IMG/VR virus record: IMGVR_UViG_3300046657_000006
Location: 8,866 to 72,865 of that record
Source: a virus
DNA length: 64,000 nt
Direction: 5' to 3' (one strand)
The translations under genes and the position numbers were made by a program. Positions 21,008 to 56,764 of the stretch are shown here, piece after piece; positions within the stretch are counted from its first letter, which is position 1; each line of letters begins with the position of its first letter. The notes below the pieces were generated by a model. It was not told the DNA's origin and searched no databases. It was given only the letters and a program-made list of their open reading frames with translations.

Positions 21008-21748
21008 TTACTTGTTACGGCGATAGCGATCCGCGCTAGGCCGTTCTTTGAAACCCAAGCATTCGTCGTCAGGCCAGCCTGATCGTTTGCGTTTTGCGAT
21101 AAGGAGTGGGCTTTGATTTGTAATCTCTGCCCACTCCGCTATGCAATGAGTTTCATTTTCATGGGTTAGAAATACGTTTTTCCGAGTGTTACGCGTGTTG
21201 ATTGTTTTTGAAACCCAATGCACGTTCATTGGCCAGTTCTTTGATAAGCATTCTTCGCAAGAGCCGCACCAATAGCCACCGTTATTATCCTTGCGGTCAA
21301 TTTCATGCCTTGGGGGTACTTCGCCTAAAAGGGCAAAGAAGCCTTCAAACTTTCGCAGGCCGTCGCAAACGGTAATTCCACGCTCGCTGTAGTCCTTAGC
21401 TTGCTTGTAGGCCGGATTGGTTGCGCGGGTCAGCATGTCGCTCCAACGTCTGTGGGTTGGGGTTTTATTCATTCCGTGGGTTCGGTTATTGTTTCCACGG
21501 ATTTCGTTAATGAAACAGCCGCAAGACTTGGTCGAGCCGTTCTTTAATTTTCCTTTGGCGACGATTCGGAAATTGCCACAAGTACAGCGACACAGCCAGT
21601 AGCTCATCATTGACGCGGTCTTGGCATAGCCTGCAAGAGCGTAGACGGTCAGTCGGTGAAATTCCTGCCCTACGATACTGACTCGTTTAGTGTTTTTGGA
21701 AGTTTGCTGACGGAGTTTTGAAAGAATGGTAAGATCGAGTTCGGGCAT
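21008..21748 (-). mobile_element. free-standing HNH homing endonuclease, antisense to the late operon
   Basis: GQEFHRLTV, WLCRCTCGN, TKSCGC, RGITVC, IDRKDNNGGY. Confidence 0.85.
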
Positions 21749-21835
21749 TACGTTCTCCTTTAAGCTAACGTGATGTTCTATCGCGGGCGAGAATTTAGCC
21801 TCTCGCTCGCAACTAAATTTTCGGTAAGTATACCA
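21727..21835. promoter_or_regulatory. convergent-promoter, two-hairpin antisense cassette
   Basis: Plus TGGTAAGAT and minus TGGTATACT flank CATTACGTT/AACGTGATG and GCGGGCGAGA/TCTCGCTCGC. Confidence 0.65.
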
Positions 21836-21850
21836 TAGGAGGGCAACTAA

Positions 21851-22117
21851 ATGCCTGCTACTTTGACGATAACTCTCGCGGCGGGACAGAACGGATATTC
21901 CCCTGACGAGGCCGGGTTCGTGAAAGAAGAATTGCTCATTACGGGCGCGTCTTCGGCGGCGGCGGATACCGGAACCTATTCAACCCAAATGAAGCAGCCG
22001 CAGCGCGTAGAGTGTGGAACGTGCGTGTTTTCTATCAGCGGGCAGACCGTGACCTTGACTGATAAGGTAGGTATTGGCACGGCTACGGCTGGAGCAACCG
22101 TTTACGGCTACGCATGA
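21851..22117 (+). CDS. small virion protein (possible decoration)
   Basis: Beta-rich T/G/A composition; AGGAGG RBS; next late gene after the capsid. Confidence 0.55.
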   Translation: MPATLTITLAAGQNGYSPDEAGFVKEELLITGASSAAADTGTYSTQMKQPQRVECGTCVFSISGQTVTLTDKVGIGTATAGATVYGYA

Positions 22118-22854
22118 GTTCAACTGCACCTCGCGGAATTAACCAAGCGGCTTATCAGAAACGTATCAATCAAATCACTGGTACGGCAGACGGTAAGCCG
22201 CTTATCAAGCTCATTTGGTGTCCTGATGAATATCGCTGGATGCCTCATAAGCTGGGAGACGATCCACCGGGATACACGTTCCCGTTTTTTTGTAACGGTC
22301 GCAATGAAAACGGAGAATTCGAAGCCCCTAAACGGTGGGGATTGCTTCAACGGCTGGAGTGGGAGCAGTTTGGCCCAACGTGGGAAGCAATTCGTTACAA
22401 GAAGCAGGATGGGGCTGTTTGGGACTTGAAAGGCCCGTGTCCTTCGGAGAAGTACGTTGAGTTAAAGCTACACACCGACCACAACGGGAAATGCTGTCCG
22501 TGCTTATTTGACTGTACTTGCGAAGGCTTCTGTGAAGGGATACCCATCGAGCCGGATGAAAACCTGATGGGATGGATTCGGAAGGTGGCGTGGGAGTCCA
22601 AGCGTGATCCTGATGTCGATCCATTTGCTGACACAAGGTTTTTTGAAGCGACACATGCGCAACGAGAAGTTAAAAACGCGCATGACAGGGCTTTTGAAAA
22701 AGACCGGGCCGATGTAGAGGCATTTGATCGTGAGGCAGTAGATTTATTTTTGAGATCGCCAGTTACGGTAAGTTCGATGGTTAAGTCAGCTAAAGCCCCA
22801 GTGCCCTCTGGGTTCAAAAAACAAAAGGGATCGAGACTGTACACACTAACTTAA
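22114..22854 (+). CDS. hypothetical protein with Cys cluster
   Basis: HNGKCCPCLFDCTCEGFC. Confidence 0.65.
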   Translation: MSSTAPRGINQAAYQKRINQITGTADGKPLIKLIWCPDEYRWMPHKLGDDPPGYTFPFFCNGRNENGEFEAPKRWGLLQRLEWEQFGPTWEAIRYKKQDGAVWDLKGPCPSEKYVELKLHTDHNGKCCPCLFDCTCEGFCEGIPIEPDENLMGWIRKVAWESKRDPDVDPFADTRFFEATHAQREVKNAHDRAFEKDRADVEAFDREAVDLFLRSPVTVSSMVKSAKAPVPSGFKKQKGSRLYTLT

Positions 22855-22864
22855 AGGAGATTGC

Positions 22865-24157
22865 ATGAGCGTTGTAGAGAAGCAGATTAGTCAGGGGTTC
22901 GCACCTGATGGAAGAATTTTTGAGCCGCCTAAAACCAATCAAGAACTTGAACAGCCGAGATATTTGGCTTTTCTTGGTTCATTGATTGATGCCGAGATTG
23001 CACGATCCCGGTGGTGGACGAAAGCGGGAGGCATCGAGATTCAGAATCCCTGCCTTCGCTACGTTAAAAACTTTCTTCGCAAGGGACGTATCACCCCGCT
23101 GCTGAAAGACACGCATGACTTTCTTCCTTATAGCTACGTTGAAAAAATGGTCGGCACCAACCCCTTGGGAGCTGGCTACTTTGCGCAGCCAATACCTCAA
23201 GGGTATGTTCCGCCAGCGCTGCCGCCGTCACAAGGGCAGTTCCAGCCGGGATTCGGTAACTTGGCAATTGGTGGCCCGTCACCGTACGGAAGTCTGGTAG
23301 GGCGTCTTGCGCTACCGGGAGAGCAGGTGGGCGCGATTCTAACTGGCGCAGAAAACTTAACGCAAACTAACGTCCAGCGCGGCGTTGTGGAGCTGACCAC
23401 GTTAAAGGGTCATCCTTATCGTCCTCAGCAAATTGACGAGATTTATGTTGATCCAACTATTTGGCAGCTCCAGAAAACAATCTTTCCAACGTACCCAATA
23501 CTCCCAACGCTGCTGGACGAGATAGAGTCGCTGCTGGACGAGGCGCGTATCCATACGTCGTTGATTTCCATCGTGGATGAAATGCACGAATCGCTAATTC
23601 AGTTCCGTGATTACGCAGACGCGGCGATTCAGAACGTCCATCACATGATGCGAGAGTCTGCGGGTCGTGCTGGGTACATCCCGCGCTATACGCAGATGGA
23701 TTTGGTGCTTCTTGAGCAATTGGGCATGGCGCGGAAAGACCGCGAGATTCGGCAGGATGCTAAAGTGAATCCGAATAGCCGTCTTGAGGAGATGTTTGCC
23801 GCGTGGCTACAGGCTCAGACTGAAGAAAAAGCGGAATTAAAGCGAATGCGACAAGAGCAAGACGCGCCAATCATCACCGAAGACACCATGAAAGCCCAAC
23901 CTGTAACTGAAATAATGTCTGACCTTGAAGGTTACGACGGGTTTCCCGGAGCATCGGGTTATTCAGGATTCTCAGGTGCAGTGGCCACTACCGAGCATGA
24001 GGTAATAACCGCAAGTAGTGACGAGCGATTGCCCAACCCTGTAATTCCACCGCTTGAAGTGGCAGAATTCGCCTGTAGCGGGTGTGGCAGGACTTCCCCT
24101 ACCCTAGCAGGTCAGAAGGCGCACGAACGTCACTGTGAAGCCGTAAAGAAGGAGTAA
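22865..24157 (+). CDS. hypothetical protein with short SG tract and C-terminal C2H2-like finger
   Basis: GASGYSGFSG; CSGCGR...KAHERHC. Confidence 0.7.
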   Translation: MSVVEKQISQGFAPDGRIFEPPKTNQELEQPRYLAFLGSLIDAEIARSRWWTKAGGIEIQNPCLRYVKNFLRKGRITPLLKDTHDFLPYSYVEKMVGTNPLGAGYFAQPIPQGYVPPALPPSQGQFQPGFGNLAIGGPSPYGSLVGRLALPGEQVGAILTGAENLTQTNVQRGVVELTTLKGHPYRPQQIDEIYVDPTIWQLQKTIFPTYPILPTLLDEIESLLDEARIHTSLISIVDEMHESLIQFRDYADAAIQNVHHMMRESAGRAGYIPRYTQMDLVLLEQLGMARKDREIRQDAKVNPNSRLEEMFAAWLQAQTEEKAELKRMRQEQDAPIITEDTMKAQPVTEIMSDLEGYDGFPGASGYSGFSGAVATTEHEVITASSDERLPNPVIPPLEVAEFACSGCGRTSPTLAGQKAHERHCEAVKKE

Positions 24158-24907
24158 ATGGGCACTATCAACTCAATGATGGACGGCACGCTGATACGCT
24201 TAGATGATCCGCGAGCGCAGAGGCCGGGAAACGCCCAATTACTCCAAGAGGTTTGTAGTCAGATCAGAAATTTGTTCCGCCAGAAACGGAACTCAGGAAA
24301 TGTATGGCAGTTTGGAACCACAAGTGTTGATGTTTCACCCGGAGAGAACACTTACCAGATAGGTGTTAACGATTTCGGAACTCCGCTTTCTGTAATAACC
24401 GTGAACGATACAGGCGACAGTAATTTTGTTGTTCGCCGCATTCCTTTTTACACCCCACAAGACCTTGCGTTTAATTGGGGGCTTCCGGCCAATGCGGGTT
24501 ATTGGCTTACGGGGAACTGGAACGATCCGTGGCATACGGCACTTCGCTGCGCGATTTTTTGGACAAACAACCTTCCGTACATTCAATTTGAGCCTACCCC
24601 TCAATACGGATGTTCTTATTCCATTAAATACTTGCAGAACGCCAACAACGTAGGCGTCACAGCGTTAACCGCATCTCCGCTGCCGGATGAGGACTGTGAT
24701 GTCGTGGAACTCCGTGCCGCCCTAGGGTTGCTAGCAATGGCAGAGTGGGAAGGTAACGATCCACAATCGAATTCAAACAAGCGCAAGGAAATGATGGTCA
24801 CCTTGAGTCGGAACGAGCAACTTGCTGCTGAACAGTTCAACATAGCCAATTTGATTACGAATGCCCCCGGAGTTAAGACACGCGATCAGGCGATGCTTTC
24901 TTGGTGA
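24158..24907 (+). CDS. putative head-tail adaptor protein
   Basis: Size, position and IQFEPTP...SIKY pattern of podoviral adaptors. Confidence 0.55.
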   Translation: MGTINSMMDGTLIRLDDPRAQRPGNAQLLQEVCSQIRNLFRQKRNSGNVWQFGTTSVDVSPGENTYQIGVNDFGTPLSVITVNDTGDSNFVVRRIPFYTPQDLAFNWGLPANAGYWLTGNWNDPWHTALRCAIFWTNNLPYIQFEPTPQYGCSYSIKYLQNANNVGVTALTASPLPDEDCDVVELRAALGLLAMAEWEGNDPQSNSNKRKEMMVTLSRNEQLAAEQFNIANLITNAPGVKTRDQAMLSW

Positions 24908-25731
24908 GAGACCTTCGTTTGAAGAGGGCGGCTAAGAGCATCTTCAGGACTCCACCGCTTGAGCCGAGATGTAATCGTTTGAAACTTTAATCCCGTTTTG
25001 CGTACCCATTGTGACACGGTTAATGTCTCCCCAAAAGCCGTTACCAAGTGATTCGTACGTTTATTTGAGTTCTGCTCTTCGCTGTTGCCCCATTTTGTGT
25101 TAATAGGGTTATAGCCCTCGTCGTTATTGATTCGATGTAGCGAAAGTTCTGGTGAAGGTCGTTTTCCCATATCTCGGAGAAACGTTTCAAATCCAGTTTT
25201 ACCTTGCCATTCCGGGCAAACGGTAATGCCGCGACCGCCCCAATCTGAATACGAAGGATGAAGAGCCGACAGGCATCTTTGAGTCATATTGTTCCACGCT
25301 GCGTATTCAACGGCATATTCTGGATTTCTTGATTTCCCGTGAGTGGTATTCCGTTCGCGCACGACATCTCGATTTAGACACCCACAGCTTTTTACGGTGC
25401 CTCCTACTAGGTTGCAAGAACTTGCGTAATGCGTTTTCCCACAATCGCACAAACATTCCCACTCAATTAGTTGCTTTCGTTTTCTGCCGCTCGGACGCAA
25501 AGCAAGCAGTCGCGTAAATCGCTTATTAGTTAAATCGAGCCGATGCCTCCCCCTAGCGCACCCGCAACTTTTAGTGTGGCCGTTGACAAGGCTAACTGCT
25601 TTTACGAAAGCGGTGTTTCCGCAATCGCAAAGGCACTCCCAAACGATAGTCCCTTGTCGGCGTTCGGTGGTAGGGCGTAAAGCTATAAGACTGTGGAATC
25701 GCTGATTTGTGATAGACTTTCTGGCAGGCAT
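24886..25731 (-). mobile_element. free-standing HNH homing endonuclease, antisense
   Basis: Two WECLCDCG...KSCGC repeats, WGGRGITVCPEW, LHRINNDEGY. Confidence 0.85.
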
Positions 25732-25807
25732 CGCGGTTCTCCTATCGAACTAAGATGTTGGGGCTAGCGGGCGCATCGCACGTCTGCTAGTCCCGCAAAT
25801 TATAGCA
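25710..25807. promoter_or_regulatory. convergent-promoter, two-hairpin antisense cassette
   Basis: Plus TGATAGACT and minus TGCTATAAT; 14-bp stem GGGGCTAGCGGGCG/CGTCTGCTAGTCCC. Confidence 0.65.
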
Positions 25808-26329
25808 TGGAATCTACTAATTTTGACGACACGACAGAAGCGTTACCAAACGGTGCAAATCTGCCTGAACACCCCGCGCTCACAACCTCCAAGAAAATCA
25901 CAGAGTATGGTCGAGTTTGGGATGATGCAGACGGAGTTACACTACACGGTGGACTTCACGAAGCTGAAATCAGAAACTTAATGAATGGCGATCAGATGGC
26001 CTTGAAGCATCTTTACAGGTTCGCAATCAGAAACAAGAGAATCTTTCACACCCGCAACTTGGTTTGTATTGACGTAAAAACAGAAAATGTGGACACCGCT
26101 GACTAAAAGCATTTACAACTCCCTGAATGACCTTGCATCTACCTGCGGGCTTCAAGGCGAGTCAGGCTCAGAAGAACTATTCGACATGCTGGGAGCGGCG
26201 TATCTAGAGTTGGATGCTGAGTGCGTTCTGGAAGAGAGCCATGAAGAAGGGCTTTGTTTAGACATGAACGCAGAACTAGCCCACAAGATAGAAAAGTACC
26301 TCACAAATAATCAGCCACGCGGCCACTGA
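25807..26329 (+). CDS. two hypothetical ORFs (25807-26106, 26087-26329)
   Basis: Coupled ORFs upstream of terL. Confidence 0.5.
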
Positions 26330-26345
26330 GTGGTATAATTCTACC

Positions 26346-28313
26346 GTGCCCGAAGTAACCCTCGAACAGACCTACCAGTTTATTAAGACCTGCACAGCCG
26401 AACAACTCAATAAAATCCTTGAATGGCTGAAGGTGAATCAGCCTGAAAACTACCAGAAGGTTGCTCAGTATCTTCAGGCAAATCGGGGTTATTTAACCGA
26501 AGTCAAAGGCTACGAAGCGTGGCTCAAGATGATGGGGCCACATTCGTTCACGGGGGATTTTTCCGAGTTTCATAAGGACATCTGGAATTGGTATTGGCCG
26601 CTCACTGAGAAACAGAAGCACGGCAAGCCAATGGACTTGGAAGACCTAACTTACTTTGCTATCTGGGGGCGTGGTTTAGGAAAATCGACCAACGCCGAGT
26701 GGTTGGCAATCTGTGAGGGATGTTTGATTGGAAAAGGCTTTGTCTTGTATGTCTCCGGCACGGCAGAACAAGCTGAGGCGCACGTAGAGGCCATTAGAGA
26801 GCGTATAGAGCAAGAAGGAGCGCTGTCTCAATCCTACCCAGCAATGCAAAAGCCGGAAGTAGGGGAGCATAAAGCTAACAAGAAAGCGAAAATTCAAGGT
26901 TACGGCTGGCGACAAGATTACTTGATGACCGCTAATGGTTGGGCGGTGCGTCCAGTTGGGTTAGATAAGGCTATTCGTGGATGGAAGCGCGGTGACAATC
27001 GTGTAAGTCTCATAATTTTAGATGACATCGACGATGACGATGACTCGCCTGAAGTAATTCTCAAAAAAGAACGTCGCATAGCCAAGAAAATCCTGCCAAT
27101 GGGCACAGCGCGAACGAAAGTGGTTTTTGCGCAAAATCTCATTCACTCCAATTCAGTTTTGAATCGGATGCACACGCGGCAGACTGACATTCTAGCGCTG
27201 CGCAAGGGCGATGAAGCAATTAAGGCGTTTGAGGAAATAGAAATCCAGCATGAGATTACCCCTCGCGGGCCTCGCAGCATTATCAAGAGCGGTAAACCGA
27301 CGTGGCCGCACATCGACATGGCTGAATGTCAGTCGTTTCTTGATCGTTCGGGGCTTGATGGTTTCATGGCTGAGTACCAGCATGACTTCTCTGGTGAGCA
27401 GGATGATCGCGTATTGCCTGAATATGATGACCGGGTGTTGAAAACCCACCTGATTACTTGGGGGCAATTTGAGGCGCTATACAAAACCAATCGCATTCCT
27501 TCCGCATGGGCTTGCGATGTTGGGCTTGATATTGGTTACACAACTGGCCACAAATCCGCGTGGACGTTTCTCTCTAAGGTTCCAGAAGGCTATCCCTTAG
27601 CAGGGAGCATCTTTCGTTATCGGGGCTGCGTGTTTACTTCAACTACGATTGGAGACATGGAAGTTGCGGTTCGTGGTCGCATGTGGCCTAGTGAGCAGAT
27701 TCAGCGAGAGTTCATGTCGCATGAAAAACTAGGTGAACAGTTAGTTCTGAATGGCGAGCATGGCTGGCACTTTCACCCTTGCGATTCCGCGAAGACCGCT
27801 GGAATCGCACAATGGCGGCATTTCCTTCGCCCTGATAAATCTAAACCGCATCCATTTCATAGAGACGAAAAGGGGGCAGATGGTCTATGGAAGATCGGGT
27901 GTCCCGCGTGGTTCGATATAGTTGTCCCAGAACAGTTTCACGCTTCCGACATGAAGGATGATTTGGGGCTAAAGATTCACCGCGATCAGGCTTATAAATG
28001 GAAAATGCGAAAGGTGGAAGAAACTAAATCAGGAATGACTGTTGAGCAGCCAATGAAAGCCGATGAGGACAGTTGCGATTCAACAAGAATGCTGACAGTA
28101 GCATTTGGGCCAGTTCAGCAGCCCATGACATTGGCTCAAAGAATTCAATCCATTATACCCGCTGGATACCACGATTCTGAGCTTGCTCAAAGAACTGACA
28201 TAGACCCAACCCAAAAAGCAATGACAAGCGACATGGCAAATTGGTTCGCCAAGCGACAACTGAAAGCGAGACTTCCTAAGCCCAAAGACCAGTTCGGGCA
28301 AAGTCTCAGGTAA
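26346..28313 (+). CDS. terL: terminase large subunit
   Basis: Walker A WGRGLGKS, Walker B LIILDDID, FMAEYQH, nuclease GLDIG and DSCDSTR. Confidence 0.9.
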   Translation: MPEVTLEQTYQFIKTCTAEQLNKILEWLKVNQPENYQKVAQYLQANRGYLTEVKGYEAWLKMMGPHSFTGDFSEFHKDIWNWYWPLTEKQKHGKPMDLEDLTYFAIWGRGLGKSTNAEWLAICEGCLIGKGFVLYVSGTAEQAEAHVEAIRERIEQEGALSQSYPAMQKPEVGEHKANKKAKIQGYGWRQDYLMTANGWAVRPVGLDKAIRGWKRGDNRVSLIILDDIDDDDDSPEVILKKERRIAKKILPMGTARTKVVFAQNLIHSNSVLNRMHTRQTDILALRKGDEAIKAFEEIEIQHEITPRGPRSIIKSGKPTWPHIDMAECQSFLDRSGLDGFMAEYQHDFSGEQDDRVLPEYDDRVLKTHLITWGQFEALYKTNRIPSAWACDVGLDIGYTTGHKSAWTFLSKVPEGYPLAGSIFRYRGCVFTSTTIGDMEVAVRGRMWPSEQIQREFMSHEKLGEQLVLNGEHGWHFHPCDSAKTAGIAQWRHFLRPDKSKPHPFHRDEKGADGLWKIGCPAWFDIVVPEQFHASDMKDDLGLKIHRDQAYKWKMRKVEETKSGMTVEQPMKADEDSCDSTRMLTVAFGPVQQPMTLAQRIQSIIPAGYHDSELAQRTDIDPTQKAMTSDMANWFAKRQLKARLPKPKDQFGQSLR

Positions 28314-28570: not shown

Positions 28571-28577
28571 AAATTAA

Positions 28578-28660
28578 GTTGGGCGACTAAGCTCTCGCAA
28601 GCTCGCCGCCCGATCACAGCATTACTGATTAAGGAGATGCTATGACAAGTTTGATACTAC
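28578..28660. promoter_or_regulatory. two-hairpin antisense cassette
   Basis: GGGCG...CGCCC hairpin, then TCACAGCAT/ATGCTATGA enclosing AAGGAG; minus-strand TAGTAT at 28654-28659. Confidence 0.55.
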
Positions 28661-29280
28661 TGTCTCAGTGGCAGAGTTCGCAAGTTGAATTTTGGCGTAA
28701 GACGATCTTTGAAGGATACGACGTTTCTAGTCAGGGGCGAATACGCTCTTGGTGGGTAATCGTTGCTAATAAGGGATGGAGCAACGGAGCACGCGGAGAA
28801 CTGTCCGACTCACCTAGAATTATTCAGGGAGCGGCTGGCGACAGCTCGGGTTATCCATACCTCAACGTGCGTGGTACGAATCGCGCTTGCCCTAAGATTC
28901 ATCGCCTTGTCGCAATTGCGTTTATTCCGAACCCCGAGAATAAGCCGGAGGTTAATCATAAAACCGGAGTCAAGGCGAATAACTGGACTGATAATTTAGA
29001 GTGGGCAACACGTCAAGAGAATATCGATCACGCATGGAGAATAGGATTACGTGATGACATCATGCCGAGCGGTGAAAGCCATTATGGTTCAAAAATTTCA
29101 GATGAGCGTGTCCTTGAAATGCAAAGACTTTATGATCAAGGGGTGAAACCGATTCATCTAGCGCCAATGTTCGGTGTTACATTAGCGAACACTTATGACC
29201 TAGCAAAAGGTGCTCGCGGTAGAGGAAAAACTTTAAGGGAGAAATCACATGAGCGGATTGCTAACCTACACAACCGATAA
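28642..29280 (+). mobile_element. NUMOD4/HNH homing endonuclease
   Basis: YDVSSQGRIRS, IHRLVAIAFIPNPENKPEVNHKTGVKANN..DNLEW. Confidence 0.9.
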
Positions 29281-46128: not shown

Positions 46129-46229
46129 TGATAGAATAAAGAAGGCTGACCCGACGTGATCGAGCCAGCCCGACCCACAAAACCAAGACTACAAGGCGTC
46201 TCGGATCATGGATAGTCAAGATATTACCA
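46129..46229. promoter_or_regulatory. convergent-promoter, two-hairpin antisense cassette at the giant GT gene
   Basis: Plus TGATAGAAT and minus TGGTAATAT; GGCTGACCCGA/TCGAGCCAGCC and CCAAGAC/GTCTCGG. Confidence 0.6.
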
Positions 46230-49200
46230 CGTCACGCTTCAGCATTGTTATACCCACGTTCAGCAACGTTGAGGGGCTCCGACTCCTGCTCGCCAGTATT
46301 GTCGAATACACCAACCTCCAAGACGTTGAAATAATTTGCGTGGCAAATGGCGCAAACGAAGAGACCCGAACTATCTGCCATGAATTTCCGGTTCTGCTGA
46401 CGTGGCTAGATGAACCATGCGGGTACGCGGCAGCTACGAACCTAGGCGTCAAGCGAGCTTCCGGCGAGTACGTTTTACTCTTGAATGACGATACTCAGGT
46501 TCTTGACAGTCCCAAGAACCAGTGGCTTGAAACGCTCTGTACTCCCTTCTCCGATCCTAAAGTAGCCCTGACAGGGATTCACGAAATCTACAGCCACGAA
46601 ATCCGGCACAACTTTCCGCCGTTTTATTGTGTGATGATCCGGCGAGAGATGTTTGAGGTAATTGGCTATCTTGACGAATCTTTTATTTCATTTGCCGAAG
46701 ATTGCGATTTTGTGGCGCGACTGATTCGAGCAGGATACAAGTACGTGAATGTAGATGCTGACGCCGCGTACAAGGGACATCAAATGGTCGGGACTTTCCC
46801 TCTCTACCATGTTGGTTCAGTCACCGTGCATCAGAACCGTGAAGCCTATGAACAACAGGTGCAGAGGAATCTAACAATCTTGCGGGAGCGATATAAGAAA
46901 CTTCGATTGTTAGTGGCAATCCCCAACTACGGAACCGATAACATTGAGTACCTACAGCAAGTCGTAAACGAGTTGTGCTCATTCAAAGAATACGAAGTCA
47001 GCATAGTTATTCACAGCAGCGTACCGATGGTATTTGGGCATGAGCAAGTTACCGTTCAGTACCATGAAGCACCGCCCGATGGAGACTGGATAAACCTTGC
47101 ATGGGAATGCCGCAAGACGATTTATGAAAACCGCGATGCGTATGACCTGTTCCTTTACAATGAGAACGATCAACTTGTTACGGAGAGAAATATAGACGCC
47201 TTCCTGCGAGTGAGTGAAGTGCTACCCGAAGATAAAATTGCGGGATTCATTCGCTATGAAGACCACGAAGGCCAGAGATTCTACCCTGACTTTCACCGCA
47301 AATTTGTGTGGGATTCCAGTTCCGTGTTTCATGTTGGTGAATACGCTTTCGCTCACTTCACGAACCTGCATCAGGGGAGCTTTCTTGTTACTCGTAAACA
47401 GCTAGATCGAGCAATTGAGATAGCGGGTGAGAACGCCTTCTACAACATGCGCGGGAGAGTATGGAGCAGCCCTTACGATAGTCTAGCCAGAGTCTCCACT
47501 GACTTGTACGACACGGGTTTTGAGAAAGTAATTCCCGTTTCTCACTTTGATGACTTTCTCATTCACCATCTACCTGACAAGTATTACGGAGTCTACGACA
47601 CGAAATGCGATGATGTAGTTATGCCGATTATCAACTCAATGGTGAAGCGACCAAAGTACTCGATAGTCGTTCCCACTTTTCGACATTTATCCGATTGTCT
47701 CATTCCGTGCTGCGAGACGTTAAAGAAATACACCGACCTCTCAAACATGGAATGCGTAATTGTCGCCAATGGGTGCGGAGACGACGGCACGCGAGAATAT
47801 GTCGAATCTCTTGGCGAACCATTCCGCCTTATCTGGTTTGACGATGCCCAAGGCTTCACTCGTGCTACAAATGCTGGCATCCGTGAAGCGCGAGGGCAAT
47901 ATCTCGTGATGCTCAACAATGACGTTTATTTTACCGATCAGACCGTGAATGGCTGGCTGGATAAACTTCAATCTCTTTGGGACAAGGCAGAGAACCCTGC
48001 GGTAGTAGGAGCGTTGGTCGAGGACGTGTTTATCGGCAAGAAGTTTGTAGCGTTCTATCTCGCCATGACTTCACGAAAGGTTCTCGATAAAGTTGGACTC
48101 CTTGACGAGTCAGTATTTTCCTCTGGCGGCGAAGATGTGGATTGGTGTATTCGCGCACAGAATCTTGGCTATGAAATCATCGGCAATCAGACAGTCTACG
48201 ATGAGCACGGTGAGAAGCGATTTGCGATTGATTTTCCTATTCACCACTTAGGCGAGCAGACGGTTTTAGAGAACCCAAACTTCATGGAAGACTGGCAGAA
48301 GTCGAATGCTATTCTCACTGAGCGATACGGAACTCGCTATAGCATCGTCATTCCTACTTTTAATCACGTTGACGATCTACTGAGGCCGTGCATTGAAAGC
48401 ATCATTGAACACACTGATTTATCACGGGTTGAATGCTTGATAGTTGCGAACGGTTGTACCGATCAAACGCGAGAGTTTGTTGAGTCTCTGGGTCATCCAT
48501 TTAAACTTATTTGGGTTGATGAAAAGATCGGATTTACCAAGGCTACGAATTTAGGGATGAAGGCCGCTGAGGGTAAGTACATAATCTTCCTTAATAACGA
48601 CACGATCCTTAAAGGTGAGTGGATTCCAATTCTTGAGCAAGCGTTTATTGATCGTCCCGACTGTGGCGCTTCTGGGCCTCTCAAGTTTATTGGTGAAGAG
48701 GGTACGTCGAATGATTTTCTGATGTTCTTCTGCTGCATGATTTCGCGTGAGGCGATAGACAGGTGCGGCTACCTTGATGAAAGATTTGCTCCGGCTGGGG
48801 TCGAAGATGTTGATTACGGAATTCGCTTGCAACTTGCTGGCTACAAGCTCATTCAAGTGCCTGAAGGGGAAGCAATAGATCGTCGCACTGACCTCTCTAG
48901 TGGTTCATTTCCAATCGTCCACATGGGCAACGCTTCCTACGGTAAAGAAGAAGGCTGGCACGACATCCTGAAGCGGAACAATGAACTCTTAAAACAGAAG
49001 TTTCCCGAATACTTCAGTGGCATGAAGTGGCTAGAGACGGGAACGAACTGGTTTGAACTTCACAGGAAAATGAAAGAGATAGACCAACAAGTCTATTATG
49101 AGCTGTTTGAAGTCGATGTCTACAGCGTCCTGAAAGAAGAAGTCGCAGGCAAAACAATCATCGACATTGGGGGTAACAAGGGATACTTCTCAATCAAGTG

Positions 49201-52200
49201 CATAGAGTTGGGCGCAAAAGAATCTCATTGTTTTGAGCCTGTAAAATCTATCTACGAAGAATGTTTGGAGATGACGAAGGGCTTTCCGCAGATTCACAGC
49301 CACAACCTTGCAGTGCTAGACGGAAGCGTAGACAGCGTGACAATGCACGAGGATAGTTGGTGTTCGCATATTTGGGGAGAAGAAGGAACGACCACGCCTT
49401 GCGTCTCGTTGGAGAACGCTGTAAACGCTGCATACGACGGGCACGACTTGGTGCTGAAGCTCGACTGCGAAGGTTCCGAGTATGAGATTCTACTTAACAC
49501 CCCAAAAGAAGTGTTACGCAAATTTTCCACTATCTACCTTGAAATCCATGAACTGCCTAACCCTCGGTATCGGGCACAAGGAAAGATGCTCTTAAGGCGC
49601 ATCGAGTCGCTGGGATTTAAGGCGATAGTTGGCCCACAGCCGGGAACGTGGTTTGACGATGGAAAGACGTTTATTCCTTCCCCAATTACCATGTACAAAT
49701 GCCTCCGTCAGCCAGTAGTCAATGTAATTATTTCTACCTATCAACGCCCTCGACTATTGAGAGAGGCGCTGGATTCGGTCTTAGCGCAGACTTACCGGAA
49801 CATCAACGTGCTTGTGGTGGCGGACGGTAAGGATGAGCAAGTCGAGCAGATTGTCAGCAAGTATCAGGGACACGATATTTCATTTAAGTATTACGACATC
49901 CCGCACGATGGAAATATCGGCAGCAGGGCAAAGATTCACGGCATAGAACAAGTTAAAGAAGGCTATGTATGTTTTCTTGATGACGACAATGTTCTACTGC
50001 CTGAGTACGCGGAAACGATGGTGAGCCTAATTACCCCTGAGAAGCAAGTAGGTATTGTTCAGGTTCTCAAGCATCGCACATTCCCTAACGGAGAGAAGGC
50101 GATCAAAACGATCCCGCCTGATGGAAGGTTCCCTGAATGGGAAAACATCGACACGCTAAACTTCCTAGTTGAGCATTCGATTGCAAAGAAGTGTAAAGAA
50201 TCATGGATGCAGCAGGACGGGATGGTCAATCAAGATTTCAAGTTCATTACTGAGTGCCTGAAGCATACGGGATATGGATTTGAGCCCAAGATTCTCGCTC
50301 ACCATCGAGAAGTCAAAGAGGACGACGCGCCTAAATCGAAAGTGTGGGATGTATTTCCGTTCTTCCAAGAATTTGACGTGTTGGAACTTCGTTTGAATGA
50401 GCTTGATTCCGTCGTGGATAAGTTTGTGATCGTGGAAGCGAACATGACGCACGCGGGGAATCCAAAGCCCTACTATCTAAGCGAGAACATGGAAAGGTTC
50501 GCCAAGTGGAAAGATAAGATCATTATTAAACAAGTTGACCTGACGACTCTTAATTTCTCGCTATTCGACTACGATCCCACTTGGGTAAGAGAGCACTATC
50601 AACGTGACGCGGCCAGAGAGGTTCTCTATGCTTATTGTGCCCCGCAGGACTTCATTATCGTCGGGGACGTGGACGAGATTCCCCGCGCCTCAAAGGTCAA
50701 AGAGTACATAGAAAGCAATCCTGACAAAGCGGGCGTGTTGGTACAAAGTCGGAGCATGTACTACTTGAACTACAGGTGCGTGAAGACTGATGAGCCGCAG
50801 TTAAACTCCAAGATTCTGCCTTACTTGATGATGGGTTCGTGTTCGCTAAACGATATTCGGTTTGCTGACAAAGAAAACTTATTGCCGACCATGCGGATAG
50901 AAGGCGCTGGATGGCACCTAACATTTTTGGGTGGTCTGGATGCGGTTACACAGAAAGTAAGAGCGTGGGCGCATCAGGAGATTGGCGAGGGACTAAGCGA
51001 TGAAAACATTGTTGCACGGGTAGACGCAGGCCAAGATATTTACGACTCAGCAAACTCTGAGTGGGAGCTTGTCGAAATAGACGAAACATTTCCTAAGTAC
51101 GTGCAGGAACATCAAAAATCGTTAATACATGATGGGCTTATCAAGCCCGTCATCGCCACTACGATAATTCCGTTCAAAAAACCTCGCTCACCGATTGGTA
51201 TTTTGAAGCCTACCGTGACCGCTTGCGTGAGCACTAAAGACAGATATTTTTCCACGCTGCCAATGTGCATTGCGGCGATTGCAAATCAAACTCGCAAGCC
51301 TGAGAAGTTGGTAATCTATGACGATGGTGAGCAGTTGGACTTACGCGAGCATGAGCCTTACGAGGCCATTTTTCGCATGTTGGAAGAACAAGGAATCAAG
51401 TGGGAAGTGGTCGCGACTCCGCGTAAAGGGCAAGTGACTAATCATCAACATTGCTTAGACATGGCAGATACTACGTTCGTCTGGAGAGTTGACGATGATT
51501 TAATTCCGTGTCCTGACAACCTTGAACGACTGCTCAATACTATCCGCGATTACAGTCCCTCTCGTGATTTCAGTGAACACTCGATTGGCGCGGTAGCAGG
51601 GCTGATTCATCACCCGCATAATGTAAGACCGTTGCCGGATTCAGTGACGGGGAAGCTCGCGGACGTGTCGCTAGGCTTAAATATGCAGTGGTTCGCTTTT
51701 TCCGGTTCTCCGCGAGTTGTGGAGCATTTATACAGTTCGTTTCTGTACAGAGTTTCAGCGGCCAGAGAAGCGGGTGGGTATCCAATTAACTTATCTGTTT
51801 GCGGGCATCGTGAGGAGAGCATATTTTCGCATCAGATACATCGTGCGGGCTACGTGCTGCTAATACAACCGGACGCCAAGTCCTATCACCTTCAAGCCGC
51901 GACCGGAGGCATCCGCGCTCACTCTGCACATCCTGAATATTGGGAGCATGATGAAGCTGTATTCCAAGAATACTTGAGAGTATGGGGAGTTGACTTGCGC
52001 GAGATGAAGTTAATTGCATTGGATTGCGGAATTGGCGACACGTTCGCATTCAAATCGATACTCCCCGAAATATATAAAACTTACCCCGATAAAAACCTTG
52101 TGCTCGCGGTGTGTTATGAAGAAGTGTTCAAGGATATTATTGGACTTCAGATGGTTTCCATAGCAGACGCAAAACTGTTGCTCGGCTCTCGTTTTGAAGA

Positions 52201-52285
52201 CCATTCTGTATACAAATGGATGGCTGAAAAGGGGTGGGCTGGCTCACTAACTGATGCTATGATGATGTGTTATGGAACAGCTTAA
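46208..52285 (+). CDS. giant multi-domain glycosyltransferase/methyltransferase
   Basis: Five GT2-like starts (FSIVIPT, YSIVVPT, YSIVIPT, VNVIIST, VTACVST) with LNDD/LNND/LDDD/VDDD; another GT-A-like domain; FkbM (IDIGGNKG, LKLDCEGSE); GT17-like (ELRLNEL, GDVDEIP, GWHL); GT9 N-lobe (GIGD). Confidence 0.9.
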   Translation: MDSQDITTSRFSIVIPTFSNVEGLRLLLASIVEYTNLQDVEIICVANGANEETRTICHEFPVLLTWLDEPCGYAAATNLGVKRASGEYVLLLNDDTQVLDSPKNQWLETLCTPFSDPKVALTGIHEIYSHEIRHNFPPFYCVMIRREMFEVIGYLDESFISFAEDCDFVARLIRAGYKYVNVDADAAYKGHQMVGTFPLYHVGSVTVHQNREAYEQQVQRNLTILRERYKKLRLLVAIPNYGTDNIEYLQQVVNELCSFKEYEVSIVIHSSVPMVFGHEQVTVQYHEAPPDGDWINLAWECRKTIYENRDAYDLFLYNENDQLVTERNIDAFLRVSEVLPEDKIAGFIRYEDHEGQRFYPDFHRKFVWDSSSVFHVGEYAFAHFTNLHQGSFLVTRKQLDRAIEIAGENAFYNMRGRVWSSPYDSLARVSTDLYDTGFEKVIPVSHFDDFLIHHLPDKYYGVYDTKCDDVVMPIINSMVKRPKYSIVVPTFRHLSDCLIPCCETLKKYTDLSNMECVIVANGCGDDGTREYVESLGEPFRLIWFDDAQGFTRATNAGIREARGQYLVMLNNDVYFTDQTVNGWLDKLQSLWDKAENPAVVGALVEDVFIGKKFVAFYLAMTSRKVLDKVGLLDESVFSSGGEDVDWCIRAQNLGYEIIGNQTVYDEHGEKRFAIDFPIHHLGEQTVLENPNFMEDWQKSNAILTERYGTRYSIVIPTFNHVDDLLRPCIESIIEHTDLSRVECLIVANGCTDQTREFVESLGHPFKLIWVDEKIGFTKATNLGMKAAEGKYIIFLNNDTILKGEWIPILEQAFIDRPDCGASGPLKFIGEEGTSNDFLMFFCCMISREAIDRCGYLDERFAPAGVEDVDYGIRLQLAGYKLIQVPEGEAIDRRTDLSSGSFPIVHMGNASYGKEEGWHDILKRNNELLKQKFPEYFSGMKWLETGTNWFELHRKMKEIDQQVYYELFEVDVYSVLKEEVAGKTIIDIGGNKGYFSIKCIELGAKESHCFEPVKSIYEECLEMTKGFPQIHSHNLAVLDGSVDSVTMHEDSWCSHIWGEEGTTTPCVSLENAVNAAYDGHDLVLKLDCEGSEYEILLNTPKEVLRKFSTIYLEIHELPNPRYRAQGKMLLRRIESLGFKAIVGPQPGTWFDDGKTFIPSPITMYKCLRQPVVNVIISTYQRPRLLREALDSVLAQTYRNINVLVVADGKDEQVEQIVSKYQGHDISFKYYDIPHDGNIGSRAKIHGIEQVKEGYVCFLDDDNVLLPEYAETMVSLITPEKQVGIVQVLKHRTFPNGEKAIKTIPPDGRFPEWENIDTLNFLVEHSIAKKCKESWMQQDGMVNQDFKFITECLKHTGYGFEPKILAHHREVKEDDAPKSKVWDVFPFFQEFDVLELRLNELDSVVDKFVIVEANMTHAGNPKPYYLSENMERFAKWKDKIIIKQVDLTTLNFSLFDYDPTWVREHYQRDAAREVLYAYCAPQDFIIVGDVDEIPRASKVKEYIESNPDKAGVLVQSRSMYYLNYRCVKTDEPQLNSKILPYLMMGSCSLNDIRFADKENLLPTMRIEGAGWHLTFLGGLDAVTQKVRAWAHQEIGEGLSDENIVARVDAGQDIYDSANSEWELVEIDETFPKYVQEHQKSLIHDGLIKPVIATTIIPFKKPRSPIGILKPTVTACVSTKDRYFSTLPMCIAAIANQTRKPEKLVIYDDGEQLDLREHEPYEAIFRMLEEQGIKWEVVATPRKGQVTNHQHCLDMADTTFVWRVDDDLIPCPDNLERLLNTIRDYSPSRDFSEHSIGAVAGLIHHPHNVRPLPDSVTGKLADVSLGLNMQWFAFSGSPRVVEHLYSSFLYRVSAAREAGGYPINLSVCGHREESIFSHQIHRAGYVLLIQPDAKSYHLQAATGGIRAHSAHPEYWEHDEAVFQEYLRVWGVDLREMKLIALDCGIGDTFAFKSILPEIYKTYPDKNLVLAVCYEEVFKDIIGLQMVSIADAKLLLGSRFEDHSVYKWMAEKGWAGSLTDAMMMCYGTA

Positions 52286-53135
52286 AACATCTGGCGTTTA
52301 TCTCATTTTGAACACTCTTAATAGTCGAATTTATATTGGGTCTGCGATAGACGTTCAAAAGCGTTGGAAAGAGCATCGAGGGACTTTACGAAAAGGGACG
52401 CATGTAAATCGCCACTTGCAGCGAGCGTTTTCTAAATATAGTGAGGCTGCTTTTGAGATATTAATGCTGGAATATACCCTTCCCCACAAAGATGCTTTAA
52501 TGATGAGAGAGCAACATTACTTAGACTGGCTACAGCCCTTCGGCTCTGACGGATACAACATTTGCAGAAAAGCTGGCTCTGTTTTAGGTGTAAAACGTTC
52601 TCTTAAGCACCGTGAGCAAATACGACAACGCATGATTGGAAACATCCCGTGGAACAAGGGCAAAAAACGTCCGCCTTTTTCAGATGAGTGGAGGCGTAAG
52701 ATGGGACGGCCCGGCGAGTCAAACCCGTTTTATGGGAAACAGCATTCTGTTAAGACGCGAACAATCCTTAGTGTTAAGGCTACCGAGCGGCTAAGTGACC
52801 CAACCAAGAATCCTATGTACGGGACTCACTTGCCAAGCGAAAAGAATGGAATGTTTGGAAAAACGCACCCCCCTGAAGTTCGAGAACGCATGGCGGTCAA
52901 CAAGGGCAAAAAATTCAGCCCCGAAGTGCGTGAAAAGATGCGTTTAGGGCAAAGGGATGGACACAAATCTTCTACTCCTGTAATCCAAATGGACATGCAG
53001 GGTAATGAATTAACGCGATATCCGTCTGCCCCTAAAGCAGCAATAGCGGTCGGCACGTCACTATCTAATCTACGGTGTTGCTTGTTAGGTAGAAGTTCTA
53101 CCGCCAAAGGCTATAAGTGGAGATATGCAGAATGA
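52272..53135 (+). mobile_element. GIY-YIG homing endonuclease with NUMOD3/NUMOD1 repeats
   Basis: SGVYLI...IYIGSA..V.KRW.EH; NPFYGKQHS; TAKGYKWRY. Confidence 0.9.
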
Positions 53136-54140: not shown

Positions 54141-54191
54141 CCCCCACATTCAACGCGGGCAAAGATTCCTGTCTTTGGGAGGCCAAGTCTA

Positions 54192-54653: not shown

Positions 54654-54668
54654 TCAGGAGAAGCAGTT

Positions 54669-55211
54669 ATGCCTCTTAATTCGACCTATGTAAAAGATGT
54701 CGCGGTGACTAACGCGGATAAGACTATCACTGTCTCGGAAGACGTAATTACCTTCACGATAGCCAGCGGTCAGATAGCGACACTTCCTCCAGCGAAAGAC
54801 TGCATCAACACGCCTCAGACGGCAAAGATAATCATTAACGCGGGCGGATCAGGCGGTAATTTAACTATTGCGGCTCCGTCGGGTAACACACTGATTGGGC
54901 AGGATACATTGCTTCCCGGCGCGACGGCTTTAGTCAACGCGATGCGAGCGACGGTCTGGTCGTCAACGGGTGGATCGGGTGCTCAAGGTGCTTCAGGGTA
55001 CTCCGGTTATTCAGCTTACTCTGGCTTCAGCGGAGCGTCTGGATTTAGTGGGTTCAGTGGAATTTCCGGCAAGTCTGGATTCAGTGGTTACAGCGGAATT
55101 TCAGGATTCAGTGGATATTCGGGAATCAGCGGATTCTCGGGGTACTCGGGAATTTCAGGTTACTCAGGATATTCAGGAATTAGCGGCAAGAGCGGTTATT
55201 CAGGCTTCTAG
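54669..55211 (+). CDS. decoration/fibre protein with C-terminal (SGX)n tail
   Basis: Beta domain (ATLPPA), then ~75 residues of SG repeats to the stop; paralog of the next gene. Confidence 0.75.
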   Translation: MPLNSTYVKDVAVTNADKTITVSEDVITFTIASGQIATLPPAKDCINTPQTAKIIINAGGSGGNLTIAAPSGNTLIGQDTLLPGATALVNAMRATVWSSTGGSGAQGASGYSGYSAYSGFSGASGFSGFSGISGKSGFSGYSGISGFSGYSGISGFSGYSGISGYSGYSGISGKSGYSGF

Positions 55212-55241
55212 CCCAACAACGATTAACAAGGAGATTGGCAA

Positions 55242-55787
55242 ATGCCTCTCAATTCGCAATACACAAAGTACGAGGCCAAGACTGACAATTACACGATCCC
55301 CGTGACTACGGACGTGGTAACGTTCACAATTGCCTCAGCCAAGACTGCTACGCTACCAAAAGCGGGTCTGTGTCCACCAAACGCCGCACCTGCTTACAAT
55401 CAAAAGCAGATTATCTCCAGCGCTTCATCTGCCGACACGCTGACTATCGCAGTAGCGTCAGGTGATGTTTTGCTGGGGGTAGGTTCACTAGCAGCGGGGC
55501 AGAATACGATTGTCACGTCACAGGGAACTACCATCTGGACATCGCTAGGGGGTGGCGGACAAGCTGGAGTCAGCGGATTTAGCGGAGTCAGTGGTTTCTC
55601 TGGCTACTCTGGGGTTTCAGGATATTCGGGGTATTCCGGCGCTAGTGGATTTTCAGGATATTCTGGAGCGAGCGGCTATTCCGGCTATAGTGGAATTAGC
55701 GGGTATAGCGGCTATAGTGGCATCTCTGGAGCTTCAGGAAAATCCGGTTACTCGGGTATCAGTGGATTTTCGGGATATTCTGGCTAG
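55242..55787 (+). CDS. decoration/fibre protein with C-terminal (SGX)n tail
   Basis: MPLNS start shared with the previous gene; SG repeats to the stop. Confidence 0.75.
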   Translation: MPLNSQYTKYEAKTDNYTIPVTTDVVTFTIASAKTATLPKAGLCPPNAAPAYNQKQIISSASSADTLTIAVASGDVLLGVGSLAAGQNTIVTSQGTTIWTSLGGGGQAGVSGFSGVSGFSGYSGVSGYSGYSGASGFSGYSGASGYSGYSGISGYSGYSGISGASGKSGYSGISGFSGYSG

Positions 55788-55795
55788 ACAACTTC

Positions 55796-55840
55796 GCGGG
55801 GTGGTTTCAAACTGCCCCGCCACAATACTTCTCTGTTTTA
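55796..55840 (+). terminator. hairpin, possible terminator
   Basis: GCGGGGTGGTTT/AAACTGCCCCGC. Confidence 0.45.
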
Positions 55841-55853
55841 CGCGGAGGGCGAT

Positions 55854-56180
55854 ATGGCAATAGCGGCAGGCGTATTTGGAAGTTCGTTTGAAGCACAACT
55901 AAACATCACGGCGGCAAGAACCATCGCCGCAAGTGAGGCCTATCTCAATTTGGTTGTTGCGGTATCAGGGATGCCGGACACGCTTACGCTACCTGCGATT
56001 TCCGCAATGGTCGCGTCCCAAAATCTTTCCATTCAAATTAATAACAAATCTACGTCTGGAGGCACGTTGACCATTGCTTGCAACGCGGCGGATTCGATTG
56101 TCGGGCGCACCACTTTGACAGCAGGAACTGCGACAATTTTTCGGCATAATGGCCTTAATCAGTGGTTCCCGACAACTTGA
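55854..56180 (+). CDS. decoration-like beta protein without SG tail
   Basis: TLTLPA...GGTLTIA pattern shared with the two preceding genes. Confidence 0.65.
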   Translation: MAIAAGVFGSSFEAQLNITAARTIAASEAYLNLVVAVSGMPDTLTLPAISAMVASQNLSIQINNKSTSGGTLTIACNAADSIVGRTTLTAGTATIFRHNGLNQWFPTT

Positions 56181-56680
56181 TCCCGTGGTTTTAGTCTATG
56201 GGCAGCAAGATATGTGATAGCCGATTCAAGAAACACTTCGTTGTCTCTGAAAGCAGCGAGTCCCGTATTACATCGCTCGCAGATCAGCCCTCTAACGCAT
56301 TTACCACAACTTCCCTTGTCACAGCACGTGTGGTCATGATCAACCGCCAGTGTTTTTCCGTTTGGAAAACTCTTGCAAATAGCGCAGACCCATCCCTGTG
56401 CTTCCCACATGCGATCAAAATCTTCCAACGTCATGTGGTACCTAGACAAGCGGAGTTTCTGAAGTCTTGTGGGCTGGTCTTGCTTACGTCGCGCCTCCGA
56501 GCGTTGTCCGCTTTCTTTGCCGCGTGCCGTGCGACTATATCGAGCGTTGCGAGCGCGGTGGCAAGGCCTGCACGCATTACAAAGACCGTCCTTTTTAAGA
56601 CGGTTCCTACAGAAGTCGGTAACAGGCTTGGTTTGCCTGCACACTGGGCATCGTTTTTCGGGTATGATGATTTCAGCCAT
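56159..56680 (-). mobile_element. endonuclease VII-domain homing endonuclease, antisense
   Basis: CAIC...LAVDHDH.CC...CGKCVRGLICERCNTGL. Confidence 0.85.
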
Positions 56681-56764
56681 GAGCGAAGATTACTCCTTCG
56701 TGATTGGTTAGACCTATCCGAGTTTTGTTTCCACTTTTCTCGGATGGGTCGAACTATTTTAACA
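56661..56764. promoter_or_regulatory. convergent-promoter, two-hairpin antisense cassette
   Basis: Plus TATGAT and minus TGTTAAAAT; GATTAC-TCCTTC-GTGATT and GACCTATCCGAG/CTCGGATGGGTC. Confidence 0.6.

Follow-up and report, generated by a model that had tools for sequence, protein, structure and literature searches.

Introduction

The sar RNA of phage P22 is a small antisense RNA that is transcribed from a promoter facing the promoter of its target gene, covers the ribosome-binding site (RBS), and controls the antirepressor. For the transposon IS10, RNA-OUT is described as a 69-nt RNA whose first 35 nt are complementary to the translation-initiation region and which brings about multicopy inhibition (PMC5006887). 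In the account of art200 in IS200, a cis-encoded small RNA lies opposite the 5′ untranslated region (UTR) of the transposase gene and acts together with mRNA structure (PMC4513863). Hairpins in front of T-even homing endonuclease genes, as reviewed, are thought to limit translation, with the Shine–Dalgarno sequence (SD) inside the stem and a late promoter, TATAAATA, within the hairpin (PMC2988022). Promoter-early stem-loop (PeSL) units are reported at variable-gene borders as modular exchange points in T4-type phages (PMC4122927), and the antisense RNA CfrI of cyanophage S-PM2 is described as connecting psbA and the F-CphI gene (review PMC12197685, citing Millard et al. 2010). Regulation of free-standing homing endonucleases is little known beyond a few T4 cases, as is stated for the twelve of T4 (PMC2790892). 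Here, we describe a leader module that occurs at five sites in a 64,000-bp window of phage DNA (bases 8866–72865 of the 72,865-bp uncultured virus record IMGVR_UViG_3300046657_000006, which has direct terminal repeats; coordinates below are those of the window) and for which an antisense RNA over the translation start is predicted.

We propose that the module gives rise to a cis-antisense RNA of ~80–90 nt resembling IS10 RNA-OUT, a reading to which we assign a probability of about 0.6; this confidence rests on motifs, covariation, and strand bias. Literature searches for antisense RNAs or promoters at phage homing endonucleases turned up CfrI of S-PM2 only, and no account of this module. The phage itself had no near relative among cultured phages (megablast of 10 kb gave no match, and tblastn with TerL one weak match) and was not recognisably T4-like in protein family searches of the window, and its uncultured relatives, of 67–77 kb, are numerous.

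Results

Five sites in the window share one layout

The layout reported by the initial annotation, which had been made from the sequence by a model, was present at all five of its coordinates. On the gene strand, a sense −10 element is followed by hairpin 1 (H1) and by hairpin 2 (H2), whose loop holds the SD and whose stem holds the AUG; an opposing −10 element falls in codons 5–7. The sense −10 was extended (TGnTAnnnT) at four of the five sites; at 28.6 kb (site 3), where it had already been called weak, only TAAGTT without a TG was present. The opposing −10, placed by the initial annotation within the first ~8 codons, was found in 5/5 sites as an antisense TANNNT with its 5′ end at offset 16–18, and at sites 1, 2, and 4 it was of the extended type with the TG exactly 21 nt from the A of ATG. 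Only 8/91 genes of the gene table carry this antisense motif at that offset, all five sites included. The two −10 elements were 109, 98, 101, and 104 bp apart in the window.

Both strands were folded at each site. The antisense and sense energies were −37.4 and −30.1 kcal/mol at site 1, −38.0 and −25.4 kcal/mol at site 2, −32.8 and −22.9 kcal/mol at site 3, −39.0 and −19.6 kcal/mol at site 4, and −35.7 and −24.6 kcal/mol at site 5. As expected from the earlier claim of a strand bias, the strand opposite the gene was the more stable in 5/5 sites, by 7–19 kcal/mol, and against dinucleotide shuffles its z-scores ranged from −3.2 to −4.9, compared with −0.5 to −2.8 for the gene strand. The anti-SD said to be exposed in the H2 loop was found there at sites 1–4, but at site 5 half of it lies in the stem. 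A terminator prediction tool flagged the hairpins of site 4 and none at the other four sites.

The genes behind the leaders belong to several families. Those of sites 1 and 2 are paralogous HNH genes (PHROG_374 “HNH endonuclease”, no Pfam match), the gene of site 3 matches HNH_3, and that of site 5 matches Endonuclease_7 (EndoVII); of the nuclease classes named in the initial annotation, two HNH genes, HNH_3, and EndoVII thus stood, whereas NUMOD4 was not found in the site 3 gene at E ≤ 0.01. The gene of site 4 encodes a 2025-aa multi-glycosyltransferase, which is not a nuclease. Two other nuclease genes of the window, HNH at 11764–12255 and GIY-YIG at 52272–53135, are without the cassette.

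A leader family, R1, recurs in front of unrelated nuclease genes

Because MAFFT/RNAalifold gave poor alignments on divergent leaders, a 7-sequence seed was anchored by a hand-written structure instead. The resulting covariance model, R1, was built from 7 antisense-oriented leaders and has 92 positions and 22 pairs, comprising the outer H2 stem AGCCA/UGGUU and a covarying H1. R1 matched site 5 (56669–56768, + strand, 29.5 bits, E about 1e-5), whose EndoVII leader has the outer H2 stem words, and even its first four codons, in common with an HNH leader, and it matched an HNH gene in relative G001, again with the TG at +21. R1 reaches no further than offset +11, which leaves the opposing −10 as an independent feature; a TANNNT at offset 17–18 was present in 7/9 non-seed R1 matches. 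An R1-like leader (E 0.015–0.09) with TAGAAT at offset 18 also stands in locus L003 (613–1577) ahead of an inverted 291-aa gene with an LPD29 domain.

R1 did not match sites 1–4 at E ≤ 5. No real match was found in 92 loci, 90 of them homologues of the EndoVII and HNH_3 genes of the window (L101–L192), and none in six cultured-phage loci (PdC23, AP22, Vibrio 1.238.A, D3, RSF1, and FLC4-3B), among which no cultured carrier was found. Rfam models (RNA-OUT, sar, C4, and all others) gave no match at gathering score in the window and none at E ≤ 1 in 16 loci including 8 R1-type leaders. R1 is a putative RNA family uncatalogued in Rfam. The description of the five copies as unrelated in primary sequence fails for site 5, by its R1 match, and for site 1, which has related leaders in L019/L029, L023, and L230; homologous leaders in other phages were found for sites 1 and 2.

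For a set chosen without regard to the −10, viral contigs were scanned for two outer-H2 words with a variable gap, which gave at least 120 stretches; the 80 with flanks were analysed, and all counts for this unbiased set rest on these. Among the matches listed, 49 of the 80 flanked stretches matched R1 at E ≤ 1e-3, corresponding to 46 distinct leaders. An antisense TANNNT at offset 16–18, a motif outside both the search pattern and the model, was present in 42/46 R1 matches vs 2/30 pattern-only non-matches (distinct loci), and it was written with 15 different hexamers through synonymous codon positions. In a set of 26 leaders, part of which had been selected for carrying the motif, offset 17 (a third position of a codon) was a T in 19/26, vs about 22% T at six other third positions.

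The open reading frames (ORFs) behind the unbiased leaders (n = 45) were searched against Pfam. HNH_3 was the commonest domain (24 ORFs, some with NUMOD4 or AP2), followed by NUMOD3 only (3 ORFs) and GIY-YIG (2 ORFs). One ORF each matched Endonuclease_7, HNH/HNH_5, REase_MTES_1575/DUF559 (Vsr-like), NUMOD1 only (below cut-off), and, weakly, DEAD/ResIII; 11 ORFs had no Pfam match. The module is attached to several unrelated predicted nuclease folds, in line with the earlier claim: HNH_3, HNH, EndoVII, GIY-YIG, and Vsr-like genes all stand behind R1 leaders.

Helix pairing favours the strand opposite the gene

In the unbiased alignment, 94.3% of the cells at helix positions were paired vs 67.0 ± 1.0% in shuffles, none of the 500 shuffles reached the observed value, and double changes were seen in 13/13 pairs of H1. 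Cells that pair on the antisense strand only outnumbered those that pair on the sense strand only by 67 to 11 in H1 and by 16 to 3 in inner H2, in alignment A8 the H1 counts were 19 to 5, and with a strand-neutral stem finder they were 97 to 46. The statement that A–C mismatches on the mRNA are G–U pairs on the antisense strand holds for H1 of the unbiased R1 leaders. A T-rich tail after H1 was present on the antisense strand in 21/45 leaders and on the sense strand in 0/45; in a set of 26 leaders, the respective numbers were 16/26 and 0/26.

These data bear on the view that the leader works on the sense strand only, with H1 as a 5′ mRNA stabiliser, H2 as a translational-control hairpin, and the antisense features as by-products. 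There are precedents for such leaders: RBS-sequestering hairpins are documented for I-TevI, I-TevII, I-TevIII, segB, and Aeh1 mobE (PMC2988022), and 5′ UTR hairpins common to GIY-YIG and Vsr-like endonuclease genes have been reported as conserved and read as sense structures (PMC2677866, Dassa et al. 2009). Within the module, the AUG lies in the H2 stem, and a sense TANNNT, most commonly TAAAAT, ends 0–12 nt ahead of H1 in 31/45 R1 leaders with a peak at 4 nt, which places H1 at the 5′ end of the mRNA. The SD, however, is in the loop and hence not sequestered, the sense stems carry A·C mismatches exactly where the antisense strand has G·U pairs (invariantly in outer H2), and the T-rich tail behind H1 is confined to the antisense strand. 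A −10 conserved via synonymous sites at offset 16–18 in 42/46 leaders has no role in a sense-only leader, and the TATAAATA late promoter was absent (0/45 R1 leaders, 0/5 window sites). We consider a sense-only function unlikely.

Insertion history and orientation of the neighbours

In the syntenic relatives L002, L003, L009, and L017, there is neither endonuclease nor leader at sites 1–3, and the flanking genes nearly abut; the module has come in by insertion. Relative L019 has an inverted HNH gene at site 1 that is 43% identical to the gene of the window, and its leader carries sense TGTTATACT and antisense TGCTATAGT with the TG at +21, though codons 5–7 encode different residues; the two elements are 101 bp apart. 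In three relatives, the glycosyltransferase homologue begins immediately behind the upstream gene, without the 81-nt leader and the first ~six codons; the first codons and the opposing −10 were therefore part of the mobile unit. Site-1-type HNH genes (in L023, L029, L024, and L230) lie just downstream of a homologue of the 430-aa gene at 19689–20981 (34–71% identity), a constant company that suggests a conserved homing site in divergent phages.

Homologous loci of the PHROG_374 type were collected with starts picked by an SD heuristic (67 distinct loci, and 79 distinct in a replicate set). The histogram of antisense TANNNT offsets peaked at 18, in 11/67 loci and in 7/79 of the replicate; a second peak of 7 loci was at offset 12 in both sets, and most other offsets had 0–3 loci. 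The motif was present in 17/48 loci with a strong leader hairpin and in 5/97 without one (Fisher P = 5e-6, 145 distinct loci). In the HNH_3 homologue set, no offset peak was present at 16–18.

Orientation was used to weigh a second alternative, in which the opposing promoter (P_anti) is chiefly an outward promoter that restarts the separated phage genes (polarity compensation) and the structures belong to the 5′ UTR of the resulting mRNA. At the inverted insertions 1, 2, and 5, P_anti aims into the genes at 21851, 25807, and 56767, almost no intergenic space exists at these places in the endonuclease-free relatives, 9/13 module-bearing PHROG_374 loci are inverted, and invading endonucleases, according to the review, may bring promoters for their neighbours (PMC2988022). 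The earlier claim that the antisense promoter points into downstream late genes is geometrically correct for these three sites. Sites 3 and 4, however, are co-oriented with their neighbours yet retain the antisense features, as do the co-oriented loci L076, L085, and L098 (co-oriented L035 is not better folded on the antisense strand). Across the unbiased loci, the gene next upstream was co-oriented with the nuclease gene at 16 loci, opposite at 3, and unclear at 22; at the co-oriented loci P_anti would fire against it, and feeding neighbours cannot be the general purpose. The terminator-like tail after H1 in about half of the leaders is likewise at odds with outward transcription as the main role, which we judge improbable.

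Pure transcriptional interference, in which facing promoters ~100 bp apart occlude each other or collide and RNA pairing is not needed, would fit the spans given above, and face-to-face promoter interference is known in coliphage 186. It leaves unexplained the strand-biased covarying helices, the anti-SD in the loop, and the terminator-like tail, and is in our view quite improbable as the sole effect. That the sites reflect chance or the generic features of any promoter, terminator, or RBS region is very improbable: they account for almost every longer intergenic gap between 18 and 61 kb, the window abounds in −10-like motifs and strand-asymmetric hairpins, and the sites were picked by the initial annotation after they had been seen, but the antisense −10 recurs in loci chosen irrespective of it (42/46 vs 2/30), covariation exceeds all 500 shuffles, and the offset is fixed within 3 nt.

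Three further candidates were rejected. Autorepression by the encoded protein through repeated TTCTAACC-like words was rejected because the same leader serves unrelated proteins; an artefact of strand-biased C-to-T mutation, because the bias tracks gene orientation in inverted and co-oriented insertions; and a T4-type late promoter in the hairpin, because of the absence of TATAAATA.

Features of the individual sites

At site 1, the antisense extended −10 (TGGTAAGAT, 21727–21735, + strand) covers codons 5–8 of the HNH gene 21008–21748 (−), with the TG at +21. Hairpin H2 of the antisense strand (21743–21778, +), as folded, has its stem over the start codon (21746–21748) and the anti-SD CTCCTT (21755–21760) in its loop; the outer stem GCAU/(G,A)UGU was kept in 5 related leaders, with a G·U in 4/5. 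H1 (21783–21810, +) is followed by the tail AACTAAATTTTC (21811–21822), which fails the T criterion, and the sense extended −10 (TGGTATACT) of the HNH gene lies at 21827–21835 (−).

Site 2 is built in the same way. The antisense extended −10 (TGATAGACT, 25710–25718, +) covers codons 5–8 of the HNH gene 24886–25731 (−) with the TG at +21, H2 (25727–25759, +) folds over the start codon (25729–25731) with the anti-SD CTCCTA (25739–25744) in its loop, and H1 (25760–25794, +) has 14 bp, including three G·U pairs on the + strand. The sense extended −10 (TGCTATAAT, 25799–25807, −) overlaps the ATG of the downstream + gene at 25807. This gene is without an SD (region 25799–25809), and since it abuts the upstream gene in endonuclease-free relatives, the insertion seems to have removed a translational coupling.

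At site 3, the weak sense −10 of the HNH_3 gene 28642–29280 (+), TAAGTT, was read directly at 28575–28580 (+). Antisense H1 (28581–28611, −), as folded, is followed by the tail AACTTAATTTTC, and H2 (28613–28646, −) folds over the SD (28631–28636) and the start codon (28642–28644). In L011, the homologue of this site, the outer stem of H1 is kept and the inner stem is compensatory. The candidate antisense −10, TAGTAT (28654–28659, −), is at offset 17 without a TG.

At site 4, the sense extended −10 (TGATAGAAT, 46129–46137, +) precedes the glycosyltransferase gene 46208–52285 (+). H1 (46143–46171, −; 13 bp) is followed by TCTTTATTCT and was flagged as terminator-like by the prediction tool, H2 (46173–46213, −) covers the SD AAGG (46193–46196) and the start codon (46208–46210), and the antisense extended −10 (TGGTAATAT, 46221–46229, −) falls in codons 5–8 with the TG at +21. 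The glycosyltransferase has at least 5 GT2 domains, a GT17 domain, and an FkbM methyltransferase domain, and its N-terminus is unlike that of its relatives. The 3′ end of this giant gene is overlapped by the GIY-YIG/NUMOD homing endonuclease gene 52272–53135 (region 52255–53135), which has TGCTATGAT 17 nt upstream of its ATG and no hairpin cassette.

At site 5, the antisense −10, TATGAT (56663–56668, +), is at offset 17 without a TG, in codons 4–6 of the EndoVII gene 56159–56680 (−). H2 (56675–56709, +) has the outer stem AGCCA/UGGUU as in R1, with the start codon at 56678–56680 and the anti-SD CTCCTT at 56693–56698. H1 (56711–56750, +) is followed by the tail GAACTATTTTAA, and the sense extended −10 (TGTTAAAAT) lies at 56756–56764 (−).

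Other features of the window

A perfect extended −10 (TGGTATAAT, region 26331–26346) ends 7 nt ahead of the GTG at the start of the large-terminase ORF; alignment with relatives sets in only at about residue 20–28, and the true start may therefore be further downstream. The large-terminase gene of relative G004 (L019, 10001–14011) matches as three separated pieces. Among terminase homologues of ~960–1070 aa (P0027, P0052, P0079, P0092, and P0112), several carry PF13403, PF14890, PF14528, and PF01079, which we take to be intein/Hint-type domains, and shorter homologues are without them. The terminase is another mobile-element target in this phage group.

Extended −10 motifs on the minus strand at 11154, 13269, and 18086 fall between genes of the plus-strand block and may mark additional promoters for antisense or small RNAs. 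The 1715-aa protein encoded at 34803–39950 has an N-terminal lysozyme-like match (phrog_465, residues 25–102) and may be an ejected virion protein.

Discussion

The module shows two facing −10 motifs in a fixed geometry, conservation of the opposing −10, covariation of the helices, a strand bias in their pairing, and linkage to several nuclease classes. The view of the initial annotation, a general antisense silencer that restrains nucleases, is favoured by the conserved −10, the covariation, the wobble bias, and the T-rich tail; its copies are not equivalent, only site 5 falling in R1, and to see in them five interchangeable copies, unrelated in sequence and each restraining a nuclease, oversimplifies the matter. 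The observation was largely right, and its interpretation is partly supported, with the main point strengthened by data from outside the window.

Several points weigh against the proposed antisense RNA. The model behind the R1-based alignments was antisense-oriented, and fitting to it tilts the pair counts to that strand; the leaders share ancestry, and the alignment cells are hence not independent events; and the invariant G·U of outer H2 in alignment A10 was fixed by the search pattern. The T-rich tail is the complement of the sense −10 and thus not an independent feature, no such tail was found by a looser T criterion at sites 1 and 2 or in 24/45 unbiased leaders, and a strong terminator at the inverted sites would starve the downstream phage genes. 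Strand asymmetries of 5–15 kcal/mol are common among 50-nt windows throughout the analysed DNA, TGNTANNNT was found 92 times in it, and a sigma-70 scan, which requires a −35 element, called 0/10 of the −10 elements at the five sites; for these reasons, the window alone is suggestive only. At site 4 and in L003, the gene behind the module is not a nuclease gene, and most homologues of these nucleases in other phages are without it. The antisense −10 of site 3 is not conserved at this place in L011, making this site the weakest of the five. Leader folding showed no strand bias across all 67 PHROG_374-type loci (34 vs 32), although the antisense strand was the more stable in 11/13 loci carrying the motif; the bias holds only where the module is present.

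Our reading of the five sites is a portable 5′ expression module, ~100–110 bp long and with a facing −10 element at either end, of which they would be copies or analogues. On the gene strand it would comprise P_sense (mostly an extended −10), H1 a few bases later, H2 with the SD in the loop and the AUG in the stem, the ATG, and P_anti in codons 5–7. Host RNA polymerase would start at P_anti, ~5–6 nt inside the ORF and at the foot of antisense H2: the hexamer spans offsets 18–13, and a start ~7 nt on would land near +5/+6, where the pairing of antisense H2 (AGCCA…) begins. Transcription would then pass the anti-AUG, the anti-SD exposed in the loop, and H1, and would stop, at least partly, at H1 and the U-rich tail that is the complement of the sense −10. 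The predicted product is a two-hairpin RNA of ~80–90 nt, fully complementary to the translation-initiation region of the nuclease mRNA. Pairing of the two RNAs, probably loop to loop first, would block ribosome binding and/or trigger decay, and nuclease output would drop as phage genome copies rise, as in the multicopy inhibition of IS10. Collision between the facing promoters may add to the effect, and at the inverted insertions (sites 1, 2, and 5) read-through from P_anti might also feed the downstream phage genes. We infer from the DNA sequence that P_anti is active, that its RNA has its 3′ end at H1, and that this RNA acts as a repressor.

A wider version of this proposal is more tentative, and we would give it somewhat less than an even chance: that a single widespread, uncatalogued small-RNA gene is carried within a portable self-limiting cassette that moves between unrelated phages, has been grafted together with the first codons onto at least four nuclease folds (HNH, EndoVII, GIY-YIG, and Vsr-like) and occasionally onto other accessory genes, and silences them in a copy-number-dependent manner. 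If true, it would be a general answer to how free-standing homing endonucleases stay harmless, and a module common to several nuclease folds with a predicted antisense RNA is a concrete and testable mechanism of this kind. Phage annotation would further gain an abundant RNA family, the leader hairpins seen repeatedly and hitherto read as sense-strand structures would be explained, and a regulatory unit would be shown to reach into the first codons and constrain synonymous sites, with a bearing on phage genome engineering and the interpretation of metatranscriptomes.

Among the known systems, CfrI resembles the module in being a phage antisense RNA linked to a homing endonuclease gene, but as described in the review (PMC12197685) it is not a short RNA over the translation start of the nuclease. 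The art200 RNA, as characterised in PMC4513863, shares with the RNA predicted here its cis-encoded position opposite the 5′ UTR of a mobile-element gene; it belongs to an enterobacterial insertion sequence, and a relationship in sequence was compared by Rfam scan only. Like PeSL units, the module is exchanged as a block, its leader and first codons being grafted onto the glycosyltransferase gene and onto different nuclease bodies; PeSL is a terminator followed by a promoter on one strand in T4-like myoviruses, whereas the module has a promoter, then hairpins and a second, facing promoter. The leaders of T-even homing endonucleases and of “fractured genes” likewise place conserved hairpins directly upstream of the ORFs and are described as common to unrelated families (PMC2988022, PMC2677866). 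The module differs from the T-even hairpins in that its SD is in the loop (sites 1–4, partly site 5, and the R1 leaders), TATAAATA is absent, the pairing fits the opposite strand, and a conserved opposing −10 is present.

The two closest parallels are the antisense RNAs of P22 and IS10. As in P22 sar, the antisense RNA predicted here would come from a facing promoter and lie over the RBS; sar differs in being confined to one phage group, whereas the module is portable and stands on many nuclease genes, and no Rfam match links the two. From IS10, the module differs in sequence, having no sequence or Rfam relationship to it, in having two hairpins instead of one, in a predicted overlap of ~70–80 nt compared with 35 nt, and in its place on a phage homing endonuclease gene, known from sequence alone, rather than in a transposon. 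The likeness is one of arrangement. In both, as in pOUT facing pIN of the RNA-OUT/RNA-IN pair, an outward promoter sits just inside the 5′ end of the gene for the DNA-cutting enzyme of a mobile element, and a short stem-loop RNA (here predicted) is complementary to the translation-initiation region and overlaps the sense promoter with its 3′ part. Copy-number-dependent control, established for RNA-OUT, is what the same arrangement would predict for the module.

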